A stretch of DNA of 28,984 nucleotides, from positions 1 to 28,984 of IMG/VR virus record IMGVR_UViG_3300037419_002193. One strand, given 5' to 3'. This document shows positions 4,795 through 28,738 of the stretch, piece by piece (within the stretch, counting starts at the first letter, position 1; each line of letters begins with the position of its first letter). The notes under the pieces are model-generated. The model saw only the letters and a list, made by a program, of their open reading frames with translations, was not told the origin of the DNA and made no database searches. Both the position numbers and the translations under genes were made by a program. Origin of the DNA: a virus (lineage: Duplodnaviria > Caudoviricetes).

Positions 4795-5024
4795 GCGACC
4801 TGGCCCCCGGCGACCGCGTCCGGATCCGCCCCGACCGCCTGGCCGCGTGGTGCACGCTGCCGGCGACGGCCGCGGCCTGGCGCGACCGCCGCGGGACGGT
4901 CGACCGCCTGGGCAAGTGGCGGCCCGACCGGGCGTACGTGGTGTGGGACGGGTGCCGCACGGCGCGGGTCGTGGGCGTGACGTTCATCGAGAAGGTTGAG
5001 GACCAACAGGAAGGAGCTTCGTGA
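4791..5024 (+). CDS. small SH3/KOW-like hypothetical protein
   Basis: ATGA overlap, GGAGG SD; LAPGDRVRI...GTV...YVVWDG pattern. Confidence 0.65.
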   Translation: MSDLAPGDRVRIRPDRLAAWCTLPATAAAWRDRRGTVDRLGKWRPDRAYVVWDGCRTARVVGVTFIEKVEDQQEGAS

Positions 5025-6334: not shown

Positions 6335-6641
6335 ATTCTTCGTGACGGTCGACGGCCCGCGGGGCGAGGAGTGGGAGCGGGTGCTGGGGACGCGCCGCCT
6401 GCCCGTGCTCGCGCCGGTGCCCGTGCTGGTGGACCTGCACGACGCCGGGCGGGGCGTCGAGCCGTGCTACCTGATGGACGTGCGGGCGCTGTCGCCCGCC
6501 CAGCGGGACGGGCTGGTCGACCTGCTCGCCGAGCGGTTCGGGTACCCGCGGGAGGAGGTGTGGGAGGAGGTGCTGACCAAGGGCGTGCCGATCCTGGCCG
6601 AGGGGTGCGCGGTTGAGGTGAGGAGGAGGATGGTGCTGTGA
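6324..6641 (+). CDS. hypothetical protein
   Basis: GGGAGG SD, overlap with flanking genes. Confidence 0.75.
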   Translation: MPGEFFVTVDGPRGEEWERVLGTRRLPVLAPVPVLVDLHDAGRGVEPCYLMDVRALSPAQRDGLVDLLAERFGYPREEVWEEVLTKGVPILAEGCAVEVRRRMVL

Positions 6642-6958
6642 ACCTCGCCGGGAACACGTGGTGGACGGGGCGGTGCGCGTCGGCCGCGCGGGCGACGACG
6701 CTCGACGACCTGCAGCGGATGGCCGCCGAGCTCGACGCCGCCGCGCCCAAGTGGAGCCCCCTGCCCTACGCCTGCACGCGCTGCCGCCGGGTAAGCCCCG
6801 CCGAGCCGACCGACCCGCGGTACATCGTGCTCCGGCCGGTCTACGCCGCCCCGTGCGCGGGGCGGCTGCCACCCGGGCCGCCGATCGCCTACCTCTGCCG
6901 CGTGTGCTACGCCCTCCTGCAGGCGCGACTCAACCCGCCCCGCCCCGCACGACTCTGA
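6638..6958 (+). CDS. putative Zn-binding protein
   Basis: GTGA overlap, GAGGAGG SD; CTRC...CRVC pairs. Confidence 0.65.
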   Translation: MNLAGNTWWTGRCASAARATTLDDLQRMAAELDAAAPKWSPLPYACTRCRRVSPAEPTDPRYIVLRPVYAAPCAGRLPPGPPIAYLCRVCYALLQARLNPPRPARL

Positions 6959-6980: not shown

Positions 6981-6989
6981 CGGTAGAAT
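6981..6989 (+). promoter_or_regulatory. putative host sigma-70-type -10 element (CGGTAGAAT; TAGAAT at 6984-6989)
   Basis: Sits in an AT-rich intergenic island (about 6955-6990), 10 nt before GTG 7000; one mismatch from TATAAT; no good -35. Confidence 0.55.
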
Positions 6990-6999
6990 CCCCCACACG

Positions 7000-8013
7000 G
7001 TGGAGCGACGATCGGGCGGCGGGCTGGGGGCGGAGGTACCGGGGTGGCTGGTGGAGGCCATCACGGCCCTCGCACGCGCCCAGGCCCAGCGGATGCGGGG
7101 GTACTTCGGGCACTTCCACGACATCGGCGAGGACGACCAGGTGCAGGTCGCGGTGGTGGGCGTGCTGGCCGCCCTGGGCGGGTACGACCGGCGGCGCGGC
7201 CCGGTCGAGGGCGCGGGGGGCGACCGCCTGTCCAAGCCCTTCTCGACGTACGCGACCACGGTGATCAAGCGCCGGCTGATCGACCTGCACCGGGGGCGGT
7301 CCCGCCGGGCCGCCCAGGACGTGGCGATCGCGGTGTGCGCGGACGCGGTGGCGCGGGGGGAGGCGGGGGAGGTCCCCGAGCTGGGCGACGAGGAGCTGGC
7401 GGTGTGGCTGCGGACGATCCGGGTGACGGCGCAGCGGCGGGCCGGCCGGGCCACCGACGCGCCGCGGCGGCGGGGAAGGCCGCGGCGGTTCACCCCGGCC
7501 CAGGAAGTGGCGTGCGCGGCCCTGATGTGGCGGCGGGGGCTTTCGCCCCGCGGCGCGGCGGCCGAGCTGGGCGAGCGGCCGGAGCTGGCGGCCGCGATCG
7601 GCCTGCCGGGCGTGCCCAGCCTGCGGTGGCTGGCCGGCGTCGCGGATTTCTGCACGCGTTTCCCCCAGAAAGCGGCTACGGCGAATAACCGGCGGGCAAC
7701 GGGCACGACGGGGCACGTCGGCCGCCTGCTGCCGTTCGTGGAGCTGCAACGGAGATCGGGCATGCAAAACTTGGTTCAGGGGGAGCTGCGGGACGTGCCG
7801 GCGCTGCTGCGCCTGGCGGACATCCAGGCGCGGGTCATCAACCTCTCGCGGTCGACCCTCGACCAGCTGATCGCGGCCAAGCGGTTCCCCGCGCCCGTGC
7901 GGCGGGTCGGGCGGCACCGGCTGTGGGCGCGGTCGGACGTGGAGGTGTGGCTGCGCACGCCCGAGCCCCAGGCGGCGCCGGCGGCCAAGCCCGCGGCCCG
8001 GGCGAATAACTGA
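7000..8013 (+). CDS. chimeric regulator: sigma-70 region 2 + IS-transposase-like N-terminal helical domain + in-frame AlpA-type HTH
   Basis: DDQVQVAVVGVLAALGGYDRRRG...FSTYATTVIKRRLIDLHR is sigma region 2.2-2.4-like; RFTPAQEVACAALM...RG...LGERPELAAAIGLPGVP resembles IS5/IS4-type transposase N-termini; no stop before the C-terminal HTH. Start GTG 7000 is inferred. Confidence 0.7.
   Translation: MERRSGGGLGAEVPGWLVEAITALARAQAQRMRGYFGHFHDIGEDDQVQVAVVGVLAALGGYDRRRGPVEGAGGDRLSKPFSTYATTVIKRRLIDLHRGRSRRAAQDVAIAVCADAVARGEAGEVPELGDEELAVWLRTIRVTAQRRAGRATDAPRRRGRPRRFTPAQEVACAALMWRRGLSPRGAAAELGERPELAAAIGLPGVPSLRWLAGVADFCTRFPQKAATANNRRATGTTGHVGRLLPFVELQRRSGMQNLVQGELRDVPALLRLADIQARVINLSRSTLDQLIAAKRFPAPVRRVGRHRLWARSDVEVWLRTPEPQAAPAAKPAARANN
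7682..7689 (+). promoter_or_regulatory. CGAATAAC motif copy 1 (putative late promoter), upstream of internal AlpA start
   Basis: Exact 8-mer; followed by GGAG (7751) and ATG 7762. Confidence 0.7.
7762..8013 (+). CDS. AlpA/excisionase-family HTH protein (internal in-frame start)
   Basis: LLRLADIQARVINLSRSTLDQLIAAKRFPAPVRRVGRHRLWARSDVEVWL is the AlpA pattern; own SD GGAG at 7751-7754. Confidence 0.75.
   Translation: MQNLVQGELRDVPALLRLADIQARVINLSRSTLDQLIAAKRFPAPVRRVGRHRLWARSDVEVWLRTPEPQAAPAAKPAARANN
8003..8010 (+). promoter_or_regulatory. CGAATAAC motif copy 2, 5 nt before terS GTG
   Basis: Exact 8-mer, no room for an SD. Confidence 0.75.
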
Positions 8014-8015
8014 GC

Positions 8016-8627
8016 GTGGCCAAGCGTCCCAAAAATCGCGAATTACGCGCGCCACGGCCGTCCCGGGCGGCGACCCGCACGGGGGCGTGGAAGGCGAAGT
8101 TCCTCGCCGCGCTGGCCGAGACGGGCAACGTGACCGAGAGCGCCCGCCGGGCCAACGTCGAGCGCCGCACCGCCCAGATTCACCACCAGGAGGACAAGGC
8201 CTTCGCCGAGGGGTGGGCCGAGGCCCTGGAGATCTACGCCGACTCCCTCGAGGCCGTGGCCGACCACCGCGCGACCCACGGGGTGGAGGAGCTCAAGATC
8301 TTCGACGGCCAGCCGGTGTTCGTGCTGCTGGACGCCCAGGGCCGCGTGAGCCCCAAGCCGTTCCTGCCCGGCTCGAAGGTGCCCAAGGGGTACTCGGTCG
8401 CCCCCGTGGTCGTGCGGCGGCCGTCGGACGCCCTGCTGATGAAGCGGCTGGCGGCCGTGCGGCCGGAGAAGTACCGCGAGCGAGTGCAGGTGACCCATGA
8501 CAAGCCCGACGGCCCCCGAACCCCCGCTGAGCGAGCAAGTGAGGCGGCTGCGCTGCTTGCTGAGCTCCGCGGCGTCGTCGGCGTTGACCCCGGAGCAGCT
8601 CCGGCGGGCCCAGCGGTTCCTGGCTGA
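8016..8627 (+). CDS. terS: terminase small subunit
   Basis: N-terminal HTH KFLAALAETGNVTESARRANV, DxxFAEGWAEA, SDALLMKRL...RPEKYRER; directly upstream of TerL. Confidence 0.85.
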   Translation: MAKRPKNRELRAPRPSRAATRTGAWKAKFLAALAETGNVTESARRANVERRTAQIHHQEDKAFAEGWAEALEIYADSLEAVADHRATHGVEELKIFDGQPVFVLLDAQGRVSPKPFLPGSKVPKGYSVAPVVVRRPSDALLMKRLAAVRPEKYRERVQVTHDKPDGPRTPAERASEAAALLAELRGVVGVDPGAAPAGPAVPG

Positions 8628-9993
8628 CCACGCGGTCGAGGTCGCCGAGCTCCGCGCCAGCGGCAAGCAGCGGCGGTTCCAGGAGGCGTTCTTCTCGCGG
8701 CGGGACCCGGCCGACGGCCGGCCGCTCAACGTGTTCGTGGCCATGGGGGGCAACCGCTCCGGCAAGTCGATCGTGTGCGGGTGGATGTGCTTCGCCAAGT
8801 ACCTGCGCGACCACGCCCGGAACGGGGACTGGTTCTGGACCGTCGCCCAGACCCTCGAGCGGAGCGTCGGCGGCATCCAGCAGGAGCTGTGGAAGGCCCT
8901 GCCCCGGTGGATGTTCGGCGCCCGCGGCAAGCGGTCGACCCACGCCTGGCGGACCGAGGCCCAGCACTGGGACGAGAAGATCGGCTTCGGCATGCACCGC
9001 AAGATCGTCCTGCCGACGGCCGACGGCGGGCAGTGCCTGGTCGAGTTCCGCTCGGCCGACCAGGCCCCCAGCACGTTCGAGCAGGCCAAGCTCTCGGGGG
9101 TGTGGTGCGACGAGCGGCTGCCGGAGGAGATCTTCAACCGCCTGATCCCCCGCGTGATCGACCGCAACGGCTGGATCCTCTACAGCGACATCCCCGAGCA
9201 GTTCTGGCACGTGACGCGGCTCAAGGAGGCCAAGCCCGACGCCGGGGTTTACTATCAGCACATGACCATGTACGACAACGAGGCGAACCTCCCGCCCGGG
9301 GCGATCCCCCGCGCGTCGGCCCTGATGACCGAGGACGAGAAGCGGCTCCGGGTCGAGGGCGAGCACGTGGTCATGGAGGGGCTGGTGTACAAGGAGTACT
9401 CCGAGGAGGCGAACGGGCACCTGGTCGACCCGTTCCCGATCCCGGCCGCGTGGCCGCGGTGGCGGGCGATCGACTACGGCGCCAGCGCCCCGACGGCCTG
9501 CCTGTGGCTGGCCATGAGCCCCAACGAGACGGCGTACCTGTACCGCGAGTACTACCAGGCGGGGCTCAGCGTGGGGAAGAACGCGGCGGCGATCGTGACG
9601 ATGAGCGGGGGCGAGGAGTACCGCCAGACGCTGATGGACCCGCACGCGGTCGACCCCCCGCCGGTGACGTACGGGGCGGCCAAGACGATCGCCCAGCAGT
9701 ACGCCGAGGCGGGCATCCGGTCGACTGGCTGGCCGTTCGTGCAGGTGATGGGGGAGCACTCGATGGTGCAGCGGGTCAAGTACCGCCTGGAGAACCGGAC
9801 GCTGAAGGTGTTCCGGACGCTGACCAACTGCCGGCGGGAGTTCCGCTCCTGGAAGTACAAGACCGACAAGGACGGGCGGCCGCTGGCGGCCGACGCGTTC
9901 GAGAACGGCAACAACCACCTGCTGGACTGCCTCAAGGGGTGGCTGGGCACCAACCCGAGCTACGTGCGGGCGGGGGTGCGGGTGGCCGAGTGA
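8497..9993 (+). CDS. terL: terminase large subunit
   Basis: Walker A GGNRSGKS, Walker B VWCDE, nuclease RAIDYG and NHLLDCL; overlaps terS by 131 nt. Confidence 0.95.
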   Translation: MTSPTAPEPPLSEQVRRLRCLLSSAASSALTPEQLRRAQRFLADHAVEVAELRASGKQRRFQEAFFSRRDPADGRPLNVFVAMGGNRSGKSIVCGWMCFAKYLRDHARNGDWFWTVAQTLERSVGGIQQELWKALPRWMFGARGKRSTHAWRTEAQHWDEKIGFGMHRKIVLPTADGGQCLVEFRSADQAPSTFEQAKLSGVWCDERLPEEIFNRLIPRVIDRNGWILYSDIPEQFWHVTRLKEAKPDAGVYYQHMTMYDNEANLPPGAIPRASALMTEDEKRLRVEGEHVVMEGLVYKEYSEEANGHLVDPFPIPAAWPRWRAIDYGASAPTACLWLAMSPNETAYLYREYYQAGLSVGKNAAAIVTMSGGEEYRQTLMDPHAVDPPPVTYGAAKTIAQQYAEAGIRSTGWPFVQVMGEHSMVQRVKYRLENRTLKVFRTLTNCRREFRSWKYKTDKDGRPLAADAFENGNNHLLDCLKGWLGTNPSYVRAGVRVAE

Positions 9994-10002
9994 GGCCGGG
10001 GG

Positions 10003-10010
10003 CGAATAAC
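10003..10010 (+). promoter_or_regulatory. CGAATAAC motif copy 3
   Basis: Exact 8-mer in intergenic gap; GAGGAG at 10027 and ATG 10040 follow. Confidence 0.75.
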
Positions 10011-10039: not shown

Positions 10040-10345
10040 ATGTACCCCAACGCCAACGCCCGCCACACGGCCCCCGCCCCCGCCAACGTCTGCACCGGCC
10101 CGGCCCGGCCGATGAACGTCGAGGAGAACGTCCGCGAGACCGCCAGCGTGCTGGCCGAGCTCAACCGCCGGCTGGACGCGATCGACGCGCTGGTCAGCGG
10201 CCCCCGGCCGACGGAGGGCGGCGAGAGCGACGGCTGCAAGCCCGCGGCCTACCTGTCGTGCACGGCCAACGAGAACCGCGTGCAGGCACTGCGGGCGCTC
10301 GACCAGGTCGAGCGGATCCGCCGCGCCCTGCTGGCGGGCGAATAA
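10040..10345 (+). CDS. hypothetical protein
   Basis: GAGGAG SD; ends on the TAA inside motif copy 4. Confidence 0.7.
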   Translation: MYPNANARHTAPAPANVCTGPARPMNVEENVRETASVLAELNRRLDAIDALVSGPRPTEGGESDGCKPAAYLSCTANENRVQALRALDQVERIRRALLAGE

Positions 10346-10346
10346 C
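10339..10346 (+). promoter_or_regulatory. CGAATAAC motif copy 4, 6 nt before ATG 10353
   Basis: Exact 8-mer. Confidence 0.75.
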
Positions 10347-10631: not shown

Positions 10632-10639
10632 CGAATAAC
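10632..10639 (+). promoter_or_regulatory. CGAATAAC motif copy 5, 6 nt before ATG 10646
   Basis: Exact 8-mer. Confidence 0.75.
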
Positions 10640-10645
10640 GGCCGC

Positions 10646-11158
10646 ATGATCAAACCCACCGTCGGCCGCATCGTCCACTTCCACGCCGGGCGCGGCGACC
10701 GCTCCCCCGGCCAGCCCTACGCCGCCATCATCACCCACGTCTGGTCGGACACGCGCGTGAACCTGTGCGTGTTCGGCCCCGACGGCCGCCCCGAGCCGCG
10801 CACGAGCGTGATGCTTTGGCAGGAGGAGGGCACGCCGCCGCCGTCGTACCTGGAAGATCAGTACTGCACGTGGATGCCCTACCAGAAGGGCCAGGCCGCC
10901 AAGGCCGACGCCGCGGCCGCCGAGCAGCCCGCCCGCCCCGCCGGCCGCCTGGCCACCCTCCGTCGCCTGGTCGACGACGCCCGCCAGCTCGCCGCCGGCG
11001 GCCTGCACGCCAACTGCGCCGACCCGACCGCCGACGCCGGCACGCTGGGCGTGCTGGTCGACGCGGTCAAGTACCTCAACCTCGCCGCCAAGGAGCTCGA
11101 GCAGGCCCCCGACTTCGTCGTCGGCCACGGGGCCGCGTTCACGAGCGGCGGCGAATAA
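10646..11158 (+). CDS. conserved phage hypothetical protein (MIKPTVGRIVHF...WMPYQKGQAAK type)
   Basis: Start reassigned from 10475; N-terminal beta-rich domain resembles a recurrent phage family; ends on the TAA of motif copy 6. Confidence 0.8.
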   Translation: MIKPTVGRIVHFHAGRGDRSPGQPYAAIITHVWSDTRVNLCVFGPDGRPEPRTSVMLWQEEGTPPPSYLEDQYCTWMPYQKGQAAKADAAAAEQPARPAGRLATLRRLVDDARQLAAGGLHANCADPTADAGTLGVLVDAVKYLNLAAKELEQAPDFVVGHGAAFTSGGE

Positions 11159-11159
11159 C
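11152..11159 (+). promoter_or_regulatory. CGAATAAC motif copy 6, 9 nt before ATG 11169
   Basis: Exact 8-mer. Confidence 0.75.
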
Positions 11160-12271: not shown

Positions 12272-12305
12272 GACGCCGCCACCCGCCGGTGGCGGCGTTT
12301 TTCTT
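12272..12305 (+). terminator. Rho-independent terminator
   Basis: Perfect 11-bp stem ACGCCGCCACC (12273-12283)/GGTGGCGGCGT (12288-12298), 4-nt loop, then TTTTCTT. Confidence 0.85.
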
Positions 12306-12312
12306 GCGCCCG

Positions 12313-12320
12313 CGAATAAC
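12313..12320 (+). promoter_or_regulatory. CGAATAAC motif copy 7, 9 nt before portal ATG
   Basis: Exact 8-mer right after the terminator. Confidence 0.8.
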
Positions 12321-12329
12321 GCCCGCGGC

Positions 12330-14723
12330 ATGACCACCCTCCCCCAACTCCCCCCCATCGGGCAGATCGGCCCCGCCGACCACGCCACCGTGATCACCTT
12401 CCTGCAGGGCCTGGCCCAGGAGGCCCAACTCGAGCTGTCGAAGTGGTCCCGCCTGGTCGACGACAACCGCCGGTACTTCCACTGGGGCGGCCCCGACGAG
12501 CCCGACGACGACGAGGTCCGCGTCAACGACATCCAGAACGACGTGATCGCGATCACGGACCTGCAGACCAAGGAGCCCGCCCACCCGACCCTGGAGCCCG
12601 TCGAGACCGGCGAGCCGGGCGAGTGCTACTGGGCCGGGCCGCCCGCCGTCGGCGAGGCCCTGGGCCTGGCGGCGCAGCAGGTGGGCGAGTGGCTCGACGA
12701 GGGCGGCCAGGTGCGCCCGCCCCTGCCGATCGACCCGGACCGGGCCGACGACCTCCGCGACGCCGTCGCCGCCGGCGGGATCCCCACCGGGGCCGTCGAC
12801 CCCGTGACCGGCCAGCCGCAAGTGCAGCGGCTCAAGGAGCGGTGGCTGGTGCAGGTCGACGACCAGCTCGTCGCCGACACGTACCAGAGCCTGTTCGACG
12901 TCTACTGGCGGCGGAGCGGGACGGACCTGTGGAACCGCCAGAACCTGCTGAAGAACAACGTCCAGGGGTGGGCGTGGGGCTTGCTCGAGTTCGACGAGAC
13001 CCGCCAGCGGTTCGCCCTGCGGCACCTGTCGGTCAAGCAGGTGCTGGTCGACCCGACCGTCGCCGACATCGCCGACGCGGCCTACGCGGGGGTCAACCTG
13101 GCCATGGACGCCGGCGAGGCCAAGGCCCTCTACCCCCACCTGGCCGACGTGATCGACGAGAACGCCCAGCAGGGCGCCCCGGCCCGGTTCGACGCCTCGA
13201 CCAGCTACGGCGGGGCGTTCGACGACGTGAACTTCCAGCGGGGGATGGTCGCCCTGTCGGTCTGGTGGCTGCGCAACCACGCCTGCCCGTACACGCCCGA
13301 GCAGGCCGTGGCGCTGGGGCTGGTCGAGCAGCGCGAGGTTTCCGCCGGCGCGGTAGGGTCGGACGCTGAGGAGATCGATCATGGCTTGGGAACCGATCCC
13401 GGGAACGAAAATGGAGCGCTGGGCCAGCCGGTCGCCGGAGGAGCGGCTGGAAATCCGGGAGTGGGCGGACGAGCAGAGCTGGGAGACGCCGACGATGCCG
13501 CTGCTGGCGCCGACGATCGCGGGGGTCCGGGTGAGCCCGGGGGACGAGCTGTGGATGAGGAGGGAGCTGCGCCTGTGGTTCCAGCAGGCCAGGGGCTGGC
13601 GGCCGACGCTGGAGGAGACGCGGGAGGCGCGGGAGAGGAACACGAGCCGCCGGCGGGCGCGGATGGCGCGGCGGCCGCCCCTGCTGCCGCTGCGACCCGC
13701 GTCGGCCTCTTCCTGGCCGGCACGGACGAGGAGGTCACCCCGCTGACGCGCGCGGACGGGGACGGCGTCGACGCCCCCCACCCCAAGTGGCCGACGTACC
13801 CGTGCATCCGCCAGATCACCGTGATCGCCGGCTCGGTGGTTGTCGACGACGCGCCCTGCCAGCGCCTCGACATCCCCCTGCTGCACAACGTCTGCATCCC
13901 CGTCCTCGACCGCCCGTACGGGATCGGCGAGCCGTTCCGGCTCAAGACCCTGCAGCGGGCCCGGAGCAAGGCCCTGGGGACGATCGTCGAGCACGGCCAG
14001 TACTTCGGCCGGCCGATGATGGCCGTCCCGGCGTCGATCGCCGCGGCGCTCGAGGAGGAGTACGGGGACGCCCGGGCGGCCGCGGGCAAGACGCTGATCG
14101 TCGACGACGCCCTGTGGCAACAGCTCGGCGGGAAGATCGAGGCCGTCTTCGACCCCCCGCAGACCCCGCCCGCGCTGATCGCCCTGGTCGGGATGCTCAA
14201 GCAGGAGACGACCGACCAGTCCGGCAACACCGACGTCCTGGAGGGCAAGACCAGCCCGGGCGTCACGGCCGCCAGCGCGATCAACCTGCTGCAGCAGGCC
14301 GGCGTCTCCCAGATCGGGTTCAAGGCCAACCGCACGGCCGACATGGTCCGCCGGCAGGGGGAGCTGATGCTGCACGACCTGGTGCGGTTCCTCTCCGTCG
14401 ACGACGTCGCCCGCGTGGTCAGCCGCTACCCGCGGCACGTGCTGGAGGCGATCGTCGAGCGGGCCCGGCGGATCGAGTGGGACGTGTCGGTCGAGGTGTC
14501 GGCCGGCAACGGGGCGATGCAGGCCCAGAAGCGGCAGGAGGCGATCGAGAAGCGCAAGGCGGGGGCGATCAGCCTGGAGTCGCTCCAGGAGGCCCTGGGC
14601 GTCGACCCGCGGCTGGAGAAGCGGCGGATGGGGCAGGAGGCGGCGGAGCAGCTCCAGGCCCAGGCGCAGGCGGCGGCCCAGGTGCAGGGGGCGGGGGCGT
14701 CGGCGCCGCCGCCGCCGGCTTGA
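12330..14723 (+). CDS. portal protein (P22-like) with large insertions
   Basis: Position between TerL and scaffold/capsid; VLVDP, PYGIGEPFRLKTLQ and SGNTDVLEG...TAASAINLLQQAG motifs; Gln-rich C-terminus. Start reassigned from 11901. Confidence 0.85.
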   Translation: MTTLPQLPPIGQIGPADHATVITFLQGLAQEAQLELSKWSRLVDDNRRYFHWGGPDEPDDDEVRVNDIQNDVIAITDLQTKEPAHPTLEPVETGEPGECYWAGPPAVGEALGLAAQQVGEWLDEGGQVRPPLPIDPDRADDLRDAVAAGGIPTGAVDPVTGQPQVQRLKERWLVQVDDQLVADTYQSLFDVYWRRSGTDLWNRQNLLKNNVQGWAWGLLEFDETRQRFALRHLSVKQVLVDPTVADIADAAYAGVNLAMDAGEAKALYPHLADVIDENAQQGAPARFDASTSYGGAFDDVNFQRGMVALSVWWLRNHACPYTPEQAVALGLVEQREVSAGAVGSDAEEIDHGLGTDPGNENGALGQPVAGGAAGNPGVGGRAELGDADDAAAGADDRGGPGEPGGRAVDEEGAAPVVPAGQGLAADAGGDAGGAGEEHEPPAGADGAAAAPAAAATRVGLFLAGTDEEVTPLTRADGDGVDAPHPKWPTYPCIRQITVIAGSVVVDDAPCQRLDIPLLHNVCIPVLDRPYGIGEPFRLKTLQRARSKALGTIVEHGQYFGRPMMAVPASIAAALEEEYGDARAAAGKTLIVDDALWQQLGGKIEAVFDPPQTPPALIALVGMLKQETTDQSGNTDVLEGKTSPGVTAASAINLLQQAGVSQIGFKANRTADMVRRQGELMLHDLVRFLSVDDVARVVSRYPRHVLEAIVERARRIEWDVSVEVSAGNGAMQAQKRQEAIEKRKAGAISLESLQEALGVDPRLEKRRMGQEAAEQLQAQAQAAAQVQGAGASAPPPPA
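13351..13359 (+). promoter_or_regulatory. putative -10 element CGGTAGGGT for the nested gene
   Basis: Same CGGTAGRRT pattern as at 6981 and 14917(-); GAGGAG SD begins 9 nt downstream. Confidence 0.4.
13381..13746 (+). CDS. nested gene in the +1 frame inside the portal gene
   Basis: GAGGAG at 13368-13373, 7 nt before ATG; G/C-ending codon bias moves from portal frame to this frame across about 13381-13690; portal frame there is a Gly/Ala/Asp low-complexity loop. Confidence 0.7.
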   Translation: MAWEPIPGTKMERWASRSPEERLEIREWADEQSWETPTMPLLAPTIAGVRVSPGDELWMRRELRLWFQQARGWRPTLEETREARERNTSRRRARMARRPPLLPLRPASASSWPARTRRSPR

Positions 14724-14924: not shown

Positions 14925-14932
14925 CGAATAAC
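14925..14932 (+). promoter_or_regulatory. CGAATAAC motif copy 8, upstream of scaffold gene
   Basis: Exact 8-mer; GAGGAG at 14954 and ATG 14970 follow. Confidence 0.75.
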
Positions 14933-16156: not shown

Positions 16157-16164
16157 CGAATAAC
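16157..16164 (+). promoter_or_regulatory. CGAATAAC motif copy 9, upstream of major capsid gene
   Basis: Exact 8-mer in intergenic gap. Confidence 0.75.
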
Positions 16165-16226: not shown

Positions 16227-17402
16227 ATGGCTGACAGCGCAAAGATCCGTTCGGGCCTCGCGGGCCTGATGCAGGACCACCTCTCGGACAAGGCGGTGAG
16301 CCTGCTCGTGAACACGATGCCGTTGATCTACTTCCTGATCAACCGCGACGGCAACAAGGCCACCAACTTGAAGGGCACCGGCAACGGGGCCCCGGGCTTC
16401 TACGGCCTGGGCCGCTTCGCCACGGGCTCGCTGTTTTCGGGCGTGCCGGTCTCCAAGACCCGGCGCGAGCAGATCCTGAACAGCGACAAGTACATGCCGA
16501 TCGTCAACACGATCCTGCCGCCCGCGTCGGACGGCAAGGTCGCGACGATGACCGACACCATGCCCACCCGGGCCAACGCCACCACCAACACCACCTCCAG
16601 CCGCTTCGTCCGCCCCTTCTTCAAGTGGGTCGAGCGCATCGACCCCATCCTGGTCTGGAAGAAGGAGATCCGCCGCACCAAGAAGGCGGCCGCCAACGAG
16701 AAGGCCGCCAGCGTCGCCGTCGGCGACCTGTTCAAGAGCGAGGCCGAGCAGGTGATGACCACGCACCTGCAGTGGTGGAACGAGCAGTTCTGGGGCACGA
16801 ACGGCGCGGCGGGCGCCCCGTCCAACGTCGACGCCGACGTGTGGGACGCCAACTACAGCCTGCGCAACGCGAACAAGGCCGACAACGTCTACGGCGGCGT
16901 CGACCGCTCGATCGCCGGCAACGCCTGGTGGCGCGGGAATTACGACAACGTCGCCCGCCCGCCCGTGTTCGAGGACCTGATCAACGACGCGTGCTTCGTG
17001 AAGGGGATCGCGAAGAAGGGCCAGGGGGCCGAGCTGGCGCTGTGCAGCGTGCTGGACTTCCCGGTCTTCTGGGCCGAGGTCAAGGCCAAGGGCGGGCAGA
17101 TCTACTACGACGGCCTGCCGGACATGGGCGAGGTCGGCTTCAAGCGGCCGGTGTTCCGCTTCAACAACACGTTCTGCACGTTCGACCCCGAGTGCCCCCA
17201 GGGCGACCTGGCCGTGCTCAACCTCTCGACGTGGACCGTGGCCGTCAGCCCCGACGCCAACTTCACGGTCGACGACGCCTTCGACCTGTCGAAGACCGAC
17301 GGCGGCAAGGACGCGATCAAGAGCCAGATCCGCACCGAGATGATCGTGGCCAACGAGGCGCCCGGCCTCAACGTGTACTACGACAACATCCAGCAGGGGT
17401 GA
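16227..17402 (+). CDS. major capsid protein (putative HK97 fold)
   Basis: 391 aa after scaffold; very strong codon bias; YGGVDRS...WW and GF...F...DPECPQG...LN patterns typical of phage coats. Confidence 0.85.
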   Translation: MADSAKIRSGLAGLMQDHLSDKAVSLLVNTMPLIYFLINRDGNKATNLKGTGNGAPGFYGLGRFATGSLFSGVPVSKTRREQILNSDKYMPIVNTILPPASDGKVATMTDTMPTRANATTNTTSSRFVRPFFKWVERIDPILVWKKEIRRTKKAAANEKAASVAVGDLFKSEAEQVMTTHLQWWNEQFWGTNGAAGAPSNVDADVWDANYSLRNANKADNVYGGVDRSIAGNAWWRGNYDNVARPPVFEDLINDACFVKGIAKKGQGAELALCSVLDFPVFWAEVKAKGGQIYYDGLPDMGEVGFKRPVFRFNNTFCTFDPECPQGDLAVLNLSTWTVAVSPDANFTVDDAFDLSKTDGGKDAIKSQIRTEMIVANEAPGLNVYYDNIQQG

Positions 17403-18895: not shown

Positions 18896-18903
18896 CGAAT
18901 AAC
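18896..18903 (+). promoter_or_regulatory. CGAATAAC motif copy 10, 6 nt before ATG 18910
   Basis: Exact 8-mer. Confidence 0.75.
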
Positions 18904-24230: not shown

Positions 24231-24238
24231 CGAATAAC
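24231..24238 (+). promoter_or_regulatory. CGAATAAC motif copy 11, 8 nt before ATG 24247
   Basis: Exact 8-mer. Confidence 0.75.
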
Positions 24239-28420: not shown

Positions 28421-28737
28421 GCGACGGGAAGCGCCACTACCCCAAGGGCACCGTCGTCAGTCGCATCGCCGGGCCGGGGACGGAGCTCAAGAAGCTGCTG
28501 GCGACGCTGGGCCTGACCGCCACGGGCGGGTGCCGGTGCGACCAGCACGCGGCCCAGATGGACGCCTGGGGGCCGGACGGGTGCCGGGCGCGGCTGGGCG
28601 AGATCGTCGGCTGGCTCCGCGCCGAGGCCGCGCGGCTGGGCGTGTGCGGCCCGGGGTTCGACGACGTCGCGGCCGTGGCCGTGCAAATGGCGATCGACCG
28701 GGCCCGGGCGGCCGCGGCGGCCGCGGGCGACGAATAA
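28417..28737 (+). CDS. conserved phage hypothetical protein (GPGTELKKLL...CxC...MDxWG...C)
   Basis: GTGA overlap, GGGGAG SD; ends on the TAA of motif copy 12. Confidence 0.75.
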   Translation: MSDGKRHYPKGTVVSRIAGPGTELKKLLATLGLTATGGCRCDQHAAQMDAWGPDGCRARLGEIVGWLRAEAARLGVCGPGFDDVAAVAVQMAIDRARAAAAAAGDE

Positions 28738-28738
28738 C
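28731..28738 (+). promoter_or_regulatory. CGAATAAC motif copy 12, 5 nt before ATG 28744
   Basis: Exact 8-mer. Confidence 0.7.

Follow-up and report, generated by a model that had tools for sequence, protein, structure and literature searches.

A phage protein joining sigma-70 region 2 to an IS5 transposase-type domain, a probable late sigma factor for CGAATAA promoters

Sigma-70 factors have two conserved domains, of which region 4 is one; SigI and T4 gp55 are the exceptions that can be cited. Here we analyzed a third candidate, an open reading frame (ORF) of 337 amino acids (aa) on the + strand of a tailed-phage record (IMGVR_UViG_3300037419_002193, 28,984 nucleotides; this whole stretch, a 29-kb virus record of 73% GC that is not a whole genome, is called the window). 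The frame runs from GTG 7000 to TGA 8013 and encodes a sigma-70 region 2, a domain like the N terminus of IS5 transposases, a linker, and an AlpA/Xis-type helix-turn-helix (HTH). Likewise, in SigI of Bacilli and Clostridia (PMC10575876) a sigma domain 2 is joined to a C-terminal HTH domain that is not homologous to region 4. T4 gp55 (PMC2988020) is a phage late sigma factor whose sigma-70 likeness is confined to domain 2 and whose promoters are used without upstream sequence recognition, the role of region 4 being filled by a separate flap-binding protein, gp33, together with the sliding clamp gp45. In dCas12f-sigmaE (PMC12259091), a module related to transposon proteins largely supplants the −35 recognition of sigma, with a separate RNA-guided protein recruiting the sigma factor.

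The window protein shares with SigI an equal R-R-x-x-D-x-x-R spacing in the recognition helix, an element that begins alike (a −10 CGWA in SigI, CGAA here), and the best region 2 scores among NCBIfam models, but its C-terminal domain is like that of IS5 and not SigIC, the SigI-type chain 8i24_F aligns with model residues 1 to 88 only, no A-tract or other −35 box accompanies the 12 candidate sites, and the gene is phage-borne. The likeness to gp55 (domain 2 only, −10-only late promoters) would be one of promoter function, a protein that works alike; chain F of 7d7d, the gp45-activated complex, aligns to model residues 1 to 106 (Z score 7.2). Whereas T4 uses separate proteins, the candidate counterpart of region 4 here is a fused transposase-type domain, and the window phage group is temperate, with prophages; none of the 36 frames scanned in this partial genome matched a PHROG for a clamp or gp33. 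The fusion also sets the protein apart from dCas12f-sigmaE, and no guide RNA is in evidence, although none was searched for. The protein would work like SigI or gp55 but belongs to neither, nor to transposases.

Because the residue spacing of SigI is kept in the family and the motif starts with CGAA, we took the protein for a late sigma factor. It is probably one that reads CGAATAA(C) as a −10-only promoter and uses its transposase-type domain as an upstream DNA grip. We found no description of this pairing of region 2 with an IS5-type domain in the open-access literature, supplements lying outside the search, and database labels for the family members read only generic sigma factor or hypothetical protein.

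Region 2 and the IS5-type domain

We searched 1.84 billion cluster representatives exhaustively with the translation of positions 7051 to 7680 (E value of 0.001 or better) and obtained a family of 87 proteins (clusters at 50% identity), one of them (P0086, 113 bits) being a fragment of an IS5 N terminus. Word-indexed protein searches returned only the window protein (P0001) and two close relatives. Besides the homologue P0004, the family has 86 members, and Pfam found region 2 (PF04542, E ≤ 0.01) in 78 of them and DUF772 in 9 (2 above the cut-off). The GTG start at 7000 agrees with the N terminus of the homologue P0003.

The region 2 domain occupies positions 7051 to 7305 (+ strand), with the recognition helix K-R-R-L-I-D-L-H-R, and was found by Pfam, by NCBIfam, and by fold. 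In Pfam, 7051 to 7320 matched Sigma70_r2 (PF04542) with an E value of 1.3e-6 (28.5 bits, cut-off 24). We built a 210-aa structure model from 79 sequences (predicted local distance difference test [pLDDT], 87), and its residues 1 to 85 superpose on sigma domain 2 (3ugo_A; Z 8.2, root mean square deviation [rmsd] 1.6 Å over 69 residues); the top 21 rows of the fold search were all sigma or sigma-like chains. These matches bear out the region 2 named in the original prediction, which was made from the letters of the window alone. Its assignment of the domain to the FliA/WhiG/SigF type held in part: WhiG and FliA lead a weak Foldseek list (E 0.04 to 0.1; whole-model template modeling score 0.25 to 0.3, rmsd 13 to 19 Å), but NCBIfam favors the SigI models (E 3.7e-6, 24.6 bits against a full-length cut-off of 319), with E 0.11 for the SigB/F/G model (12 bits against a cut-off of 234).

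The SigI-like recognition helix is a feature that the original prediction had overlooked. R74, R75, D78, and R81 are retained in 48, 44, 55, and 76 of the 79 aligned family rows, and their spacing equals that of SigI6 R97, R98, D101, and R104 (a match of spacing, without direct alignment), which contact C-14 and G-13 of the CGWA −10 element (PMC10575876). The likeness to FliA and WhiG (sigma-28) is also one of region 2: WhiG tops the Foldseek list, and in a comparison of the family hidden Markov model (HMM) with PDB, FliA was matched at E 2e-5, but the matches to solved sigma factors all end by profile position 112 and none reaches region 4, and whole-model superposition on these factors is poor.

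The second domain, at 7387 to 7659 (+ strand), has five helices (model residues 113 to 136, 149 to 162, 166 to 175, 177 to 183, and 191 to 203) and stands in place of region 4 as a homologue of the IS5-family transposase N-terminal domain (DUF772-like). Both peptides on which the original prediction rested were found where it had placed them, in one open frame (D28 to R81 of P0001 at 7132 to 7293, G142 to L194 at 7474 to 7632). The second domain, however, begins earlier than the 7474 proposed, with a helix from about 7387, and the frame does not end near 7632: it continues to 8013 and takes in an HTH_17/AlpA domain from ATG 7762, absent from that prediction.

The proposed kinship with IS5/DUF772-like N termini was substantiated by hhalign (98.9%, E 1.8e-17, about 77 columns) and by HMMs that match in both directions. 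For the forward direction, 76 loci of a Paludisphaera-seeded IS (insertion sequence) family gave 60 intact N termini and, after dereplication, 36 rows, from which we built an HMM; it scored P0004 at 30.6 bits, P0003 at 25.1, and the window protein at 17.1, where the best of 6000 shuffles reached 6.6. Since the IS sample grew from a single seed that had been picked because it resembled P0004, more weight goes to the reverse test, in which a second-domain HMM derived solely from the 79 family rows scored 65 of 65 IS5 frames at 28 to 57 bits and three host sigma-like frames at ≤4.7 bits (region 4 in these frames was not separately confirmed). Furthermore, when the whole-family HMM was run on five planctomycete genomes, IS5 N termini scored higher (up to 52.6 bits) than host sigma factors did (up to 38.7 bits). 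The homologous domain is of the planctomycete type (DUF772, NF033579), and conservation in the 79 rows is high at W119 (70), Q151 (66), R167 (68), and P189 (78).

Single-sequence comparisons gave a graded picture. The window segment alone fell below DUF772 in Pfam, its sole match being the generic HTH_32 (E 0.006), and 7321 to 7680 matched no NCBIfam model; the homologue P0004 matched both DUF772 (E 0.004) and an IS5 model (E 0.006). The only plasmid match of P0004 in the second-domain region was a Paludisphaera IS5 transposase (E 0.1), to which the window protein is 39% identical over 72 residues, and the Atlas clusters nearest P0004 were mostly IS5 fragments at 0.85 (a lead only). The alignment to the IS5 transposase P0005 is restricted to its residues 8 to 95 and excludes the DDE part. 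As the original prediction had it, neither region 4 nor a DDE domain is visible: the Pfam scans of the window protein and its 86 relatives (one row of which hid one family) and the NCBIfam scans listed none, and at the sequence level region 2 was recovered while the second segment gave no ordinary region 4 match. Whole-model fold searches pinned no solved fold to the second domain, region 2 dominating the lists. An early model from three sequences (pLDDT 45) and its fold search (weak Tc3, TnpE, and TnsB HTH rows, Z 3.6 to 4.0) were set aside.

These comparisons make it conceivable, at somewhat short of an even chance, that the end-binding domain of an IS5 transposase was exapted: fused to region 2, it would do the job of region 4 across the family, gripping upstream DNA and perhaps the beta flap, and would serve −10-only leaderless late promoters without a clamp or co-activator. 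A different origin is rather unlikely, namely, that the domain is an old common HTH module, that it passed from the sigma factor to IS5, or that it is a very altered region 4. An unrooted tree (40 of 79 phage rows and 17 of 33 IS rows, three aberrant IS rows being dropped and then every second row kept) splits along one long branch into the phage group and the IS group, neither nested in the other, and the phage domains show far greater diversity than the IS sample, itself of one seed. Several sigma chains also align loosely over the whole model (rmsd 14 to 20 Å), as a remote HTH kinship with region 4 might have it. Set against such an origin are the match to a whole transposase N-terminal domain (residues about 8 to 90), the end of all sigma matches by profile position 112, and the gap between the scores of IS5 frames and host sigma-like frames. 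Moreover, DUF772-type IS5 elements occur across bacteria and archaea, and full-length family members were found in one class only; because IS5 is spread more widely than the family, domestication of a transposase domain appears the likelier direction.

The CGAATAA(C) motif in the window and in related prophages

The motif CGAATAAC occurs 12 times in the window, always on the + (coding) strand, where 0.10 copies were expected and 0 of 100 shuffles exceeded 2. All 12 copies begin with CGAA and lie within or after the sigma gene, with none in the 7.6 kb before it; 8 of the 12 are 5 to 9 bases before a start codon, and the other four are 29 to 72 bases before a likely start. The gene had been described as sitting just before the first copy, which is not exact: copy 1 (7682 to 7689) is inside the frame, where it reads as A-N-N codons that are kept in P0003 and P0004, and it is copy 2 (8003 to 8010) that abuts the sigma-frame stop, 5 bases before the GTG of the small terminase gene. 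Judging from its position, copy 1 is likely the promoter of a nested HTH gene.

Downstream, copy 3 (10003 to 10010) is 29 bases before an ATG, copies 4 (10339 to 10346) and 5 (10632 to 10639) are each 6 bases before one, and copy 6 (11152 to 11159) is 9 bases before one. Copy 7 (12313 to 12320) precedes the portal ATG at 12330 by 9 bases and comes just after a GC-rich hairpin and T run (12272 to 12304), which suggests that the portal gene starts at this ATG and not at GTG 11901 of the ORF list. Copy 8 (14925 to 14932) is 37 bases before ATG 14970, copy 9 (16157 to 16164) is 62 bases before the ATG of the probable major capsid gene, and copies 10 (18896 to 18903), 11 (24231 to 24238), and 12 (28731 to 28738) are 6, 8, and 5 bases before an ATG, that of copy 11 belonging to a 986-aa gene; all are on the + strand. 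A one-mismatch copy, CGAATTAC, lies at 8039 to 8046 within the start of the small terminase gene and is the only near-copy on the + strand.

The lack of a −35 box, also claimed in the original prediction, was confirmed. Across the 12 sites no column from −60 to −4 rose above 0.54 bits, where the null maximum averaged 0.70, and no 5- or 6-mer was common to the upstream regions beyond chance; the only upstream conservation was G at −2 and −1.

Next, we looked into how the motif behaves in other genomes. Full-length family members were present in 4 of 401 genomes of the class Phycisphaerae (that of genome G004; a fifth match was to the IS-type part only) and in 4 of 141 genomes of the order of G544, six genomes in total across the two samples; a phylum-wide sample of 401 genomes held none (E 1e-16, 7 candidates scored per genome). 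A related portal was found in 4 of the 401 class genomes, 3 of which carry a full-length member, and from these relatives the host of the window phage is probably a member of the Phycisphaerae. The prophages of G604 and G564 have the same order of sigma, small terminase (TerS), and large terminase (TerL) genes, with TerL 56% identical in G564. On the coding strand CGAATAA occurs 3 and 2 times in two G604 contigs (0.075 and 0.07 expected) and 4 times in G564 (0.475 expected). GAATAA stands 8 bases before the portal ATG in G544 and G564, and the stop of the sigma gene is formed by the motif in G604 and, as TGAATAAC, in G544, 5 to 6 bases before the next start. The co-occurrence of architecture and motif in other phages, offered at the outset as a check, is thereby found, with CGAATAA at matching places in related prophages.

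The family as a whole bears an indirect trace of the motif, read from protein ends without DNA. Among the 86 members, the C terminus is E in 20, GE in 10, and NN in 4, against 20, 3, and 0 of 298 control frames (Fisher test, P value = 4e-5, 3e-5, and 0.002, respectively); the E/GE and NN ends are readings of GAA-TAA and AAT-AAC. In addition, P0007 and P0035 both end in E-R-I-T-V, the third-frame reading of CGAATAAC, and 13 of the 86 members end in N, which may reflect variant motifs.

On this evidence the following course can be proposed. Host sigma-70 would transcribe the sigma gene from the TAGAAT site upstream of it, and region 2 of the product would dock on the beta-prime clamp of the host core RNA polymerase. 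The R-R-x-x-D-x-x-R helix would read CG and open the DNA at the next AA, as SigI does at CGWA, and transcription would begin 5 to 9 bases past the motif, leaving most late messages leaderless or nearly so. The IS5-type helical domain would replace region 4 as an upstream DNA grip, presumably with little sequence choice because the sites have no −35 box in common. Most of the small AlpA/Xis-type HTH would be produced from its own ATG, with motif copy 1 as promoter, and some as a C-terminal extension of the sigma domains.

Several observations weigh against a late sigma factor with these properties. The enrichment of CGAATAA is not significant in G544 (2 against 0.8 expected, P value = 0.17) or in G657 (P value = 0.07, near the portal), and no motif follows the sigma gene in G564; in G798 GGCGATAAC is found there. 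The members in G798, G414, and G830 have no detected portal nearby, and the G830 copy has an internal stop. In the five host genomes examined, CGAATAAC sites before an ATG number 48, against 18 for a reversed control that is not composition-matched. Lastly, the distant prophage of G657 (555853 to 579804; 25 to 26% identity) has CCGAATAATCCC-type sites, four of them 3 to 6 bases before a start codon, its own motif sites being CCGAATAAT. Its candidate sigma gene follows TerL (196 aa; G657:C3:552378-552968; L156:2378-2968) and has a weak region 2 (22 bits with the family HMM, Pfam E 0.12) in which, by eye, E replaces the near-invariant R81; it lacks the IS5-type domain and has a different C-terminal half. 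G657 keeps the motif without the IS5-type domain, which indicates that the domain is not needed for motif retention and that another reader is possible. Two readings follow: region 2 may set the motif by itself, with an exchangeable second domain as would suit a graft, or the motif may have another reader, a host sigma for instance.

We judge it improbable that a host alternative sigma factor (FliA/WhiG-like or extracytoplasmic function) reads CGAATAA and that the phage protein is a co-activator or a decoy for the core polymerase. The −10 element of FliA/WhiG looks similar to the motif, which resembles the FliA −10 consensus GCCGATAA, and the G657 prophage keeps its motif with only a weak region 2 gene. 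Flagellin genes are present in 130 of the 141 genomes of the order of G544, so sigma-28 is probably present as well, and some of the motif-ATG sites in host genomes are outside prophages. These sites are few, however: CGAATAAC followed after 4 to 11 bases by ATG occurs 5 to 17 times per host genome (five genomes), which speaks against a large host regulon though not against a small one, and GGCGAATAAC in the hosts barely exceeds its control (2 to 10 against 1 to 9). It also counts against a host reader that the recognition helix of the family carries the CG-reading residues of SigI and that in the window, G604, and G564 alike the gene immediately precedes the first operon led by the motif. The upstream stretches of flagellin genes held CGAATAA in 0 of 30 cases, but the FliA consensus itself was found in only 2 of 30, so this test carries no weight.

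We also scanned viral contigs for the motif followed by ATG and obtained 20 loci; 2 were the window phage, and the 18 others had 1 to 3 copies and no family member. One 40-kb viral contig of 66% GC, L017 (G406), has three CGAATAAC copies on one strand in the 20 kb examined and no family member at E 0.01.

The AlpA/Xis-type HTH and the upstream DNA contact

The third domain, an AlpA/excisionase-type HTH (HTH_17; 7762 to 8013, + strand), is in frame with the sigma gene and scored above the Pfam cut-off (E 4.8e-7); it also matches AlpA in PDB (8c3t, E 0.008). It has its own ATG with GGAG just upstream, and it appears to be a nested gene that would also be translated as a C-terminal extension, since no stop separates it from the sigma domains. 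It is doubtful that the working product is instead the three-domain fusion, with the HTH giving the upstream DNA contact. No stop interrupts the frame in the window, P0003, or P0004, where the linker differs only by an in-frame 3-codon indel, and 4 of 86 distant members also carry HTH_17 in frame. But 70 of the 86 members are 180 to 265 aa long and end soon after the IS5-type domain, and open frames are common in DNA of 73% GC. The linker (7651 to 7761) moreover has a lower GC content at third codon positions (0.81, against 0.96 in the domains) and contains its own motif copy, GGAG, and ATG. The contigs compared at this locus were near-identical copies and offered no usable variants in the linker.

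The N-terminal domains of IS4/IS5-type transposases bind element ends, and the strong conservation of the second domain (P189 in 78 of 79 rows) and a GTAGAATCC at 6983 to 6991 that resembles part of the IS end TGCTCTGTAGAAAA could suggest a late sigma factor whose IS5-type domain has kept sequence-specific binding, either to one site that serves for loading or as an operator or to a site whose distance varies, much as transposases recognize their ends, but this is very unlikely given that no upstream 5- or 6-mer is shared by the 12 sites beyond chance and that no IS-end 12-mer lies within one mismatch near the gene or the promoters. The likeness of GTAGAATCC to the IS end was rejected as probable chance; it overlaps the −10 hexamer of the sigma gene and was not found upstream of the G604 and G544 homologues. 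In the planctomycete IS5 family (L024 to L081), the terminal inverted repeat TGCTCTGTAGAAAA lies about 55 to 80 bases upstream of the point where the transposase begins. Near the sigma gene nothing matched the end motif, taken from 22 IS loci, within one mismatch in 12, other repeat types not being searched. The protein thus differs from an IS5 transposase in its fusion to region 2, in the lack of a DDE domain, and in a window in which no IS ends were found.

Dozens of diverse members that pair region 2 with a transposase-type domain show that the second module of a sigma factor can be exchanged for one that mobile elements also have. Exaptation, if true, would add a further independent replacement of region 4 to SigIC and gp33, the third in all and the only one so far to come from a transposase within the sigma chain itself. 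A protein of about 200 residues and an 8-base promoter form a small testable system, with native host, prophage, and promoters in the same genomes, and, should the promoter need only this sigma factor, a candidate orthogonal switch for planctomycetes. The analysis also ties an uncultured soil phage group to probable Phycisphaerae hosts and offers a first, probable functional context for a DUF772-type domain outside a transposase.

Gene neighborhood and other settings

The sigma gene lies between a frame without a Pfam match (6638 to 6958) and TerS, the two neighbors considered for an RsgI-type anti-sigma gene in this partial genome. A sigma-70-type −10 hexamer, TAGAAT (6984 to 6989, + strand), 10 bases before GTG 7000, is likely the promoter from which the host reads the gene. 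By eye, TATACT is upstream of the G604 homologue, and a TTGACA..TATAAA pair is upstream of the G544 homologue. All on the + strand, TerS follows the sigma gene directly (8016 to 8627; PHROG 4044, E 6.1e-30), and further on are TerL (8497 to 9993; PHROG 2, E 9.7e-19), the portal gene (12330 to 14723; PHROG 156, E 1.3e-19), and the probable major capsid gene (16227 to 17402; PHROG 9953, E 0.0013).

Other family members have different surroundings. In G544 (G544:C4:191789-192523; L129:789-1523) the sigma gene lies within a structural block and not before the terminase. The G798 member (G798:C3:30700-50000; L140, L141) sits with integrase, replication initiator, and DnaC-like genes in what may be a satellite element, no portal having been detected there; GAATAAC stands before three genes of this element. 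In G830 (G830:C532:1993-2526; L137) a TAA separates region 2 from the IS5-type domain, making this gene either broken or split, and the G414 member has no detected structural neighbors.

Searches of the isolate phage collection gave no match except for the small HTH, and the Logan, ENA, and JGI members sought in viral, metagenome, and genome scans yielded only a copy of the window phage, nothing, or unrelated loci. Near-identical DNA was found in soil and rhizosphere runs, with five runs containing at least half of the words, two of which may be sources of the record; no RNA run was among the matches listed. Upstream of the sigma gene, 616 to 1191 has a Rieske-like match (E 6e-6), 1178 to 1792 encodes a RusA resolvase, and the frame at 4996 to 5991 matches PHROG 9210 (E 4e-26), with a weak DnaJ-domain match at its end.

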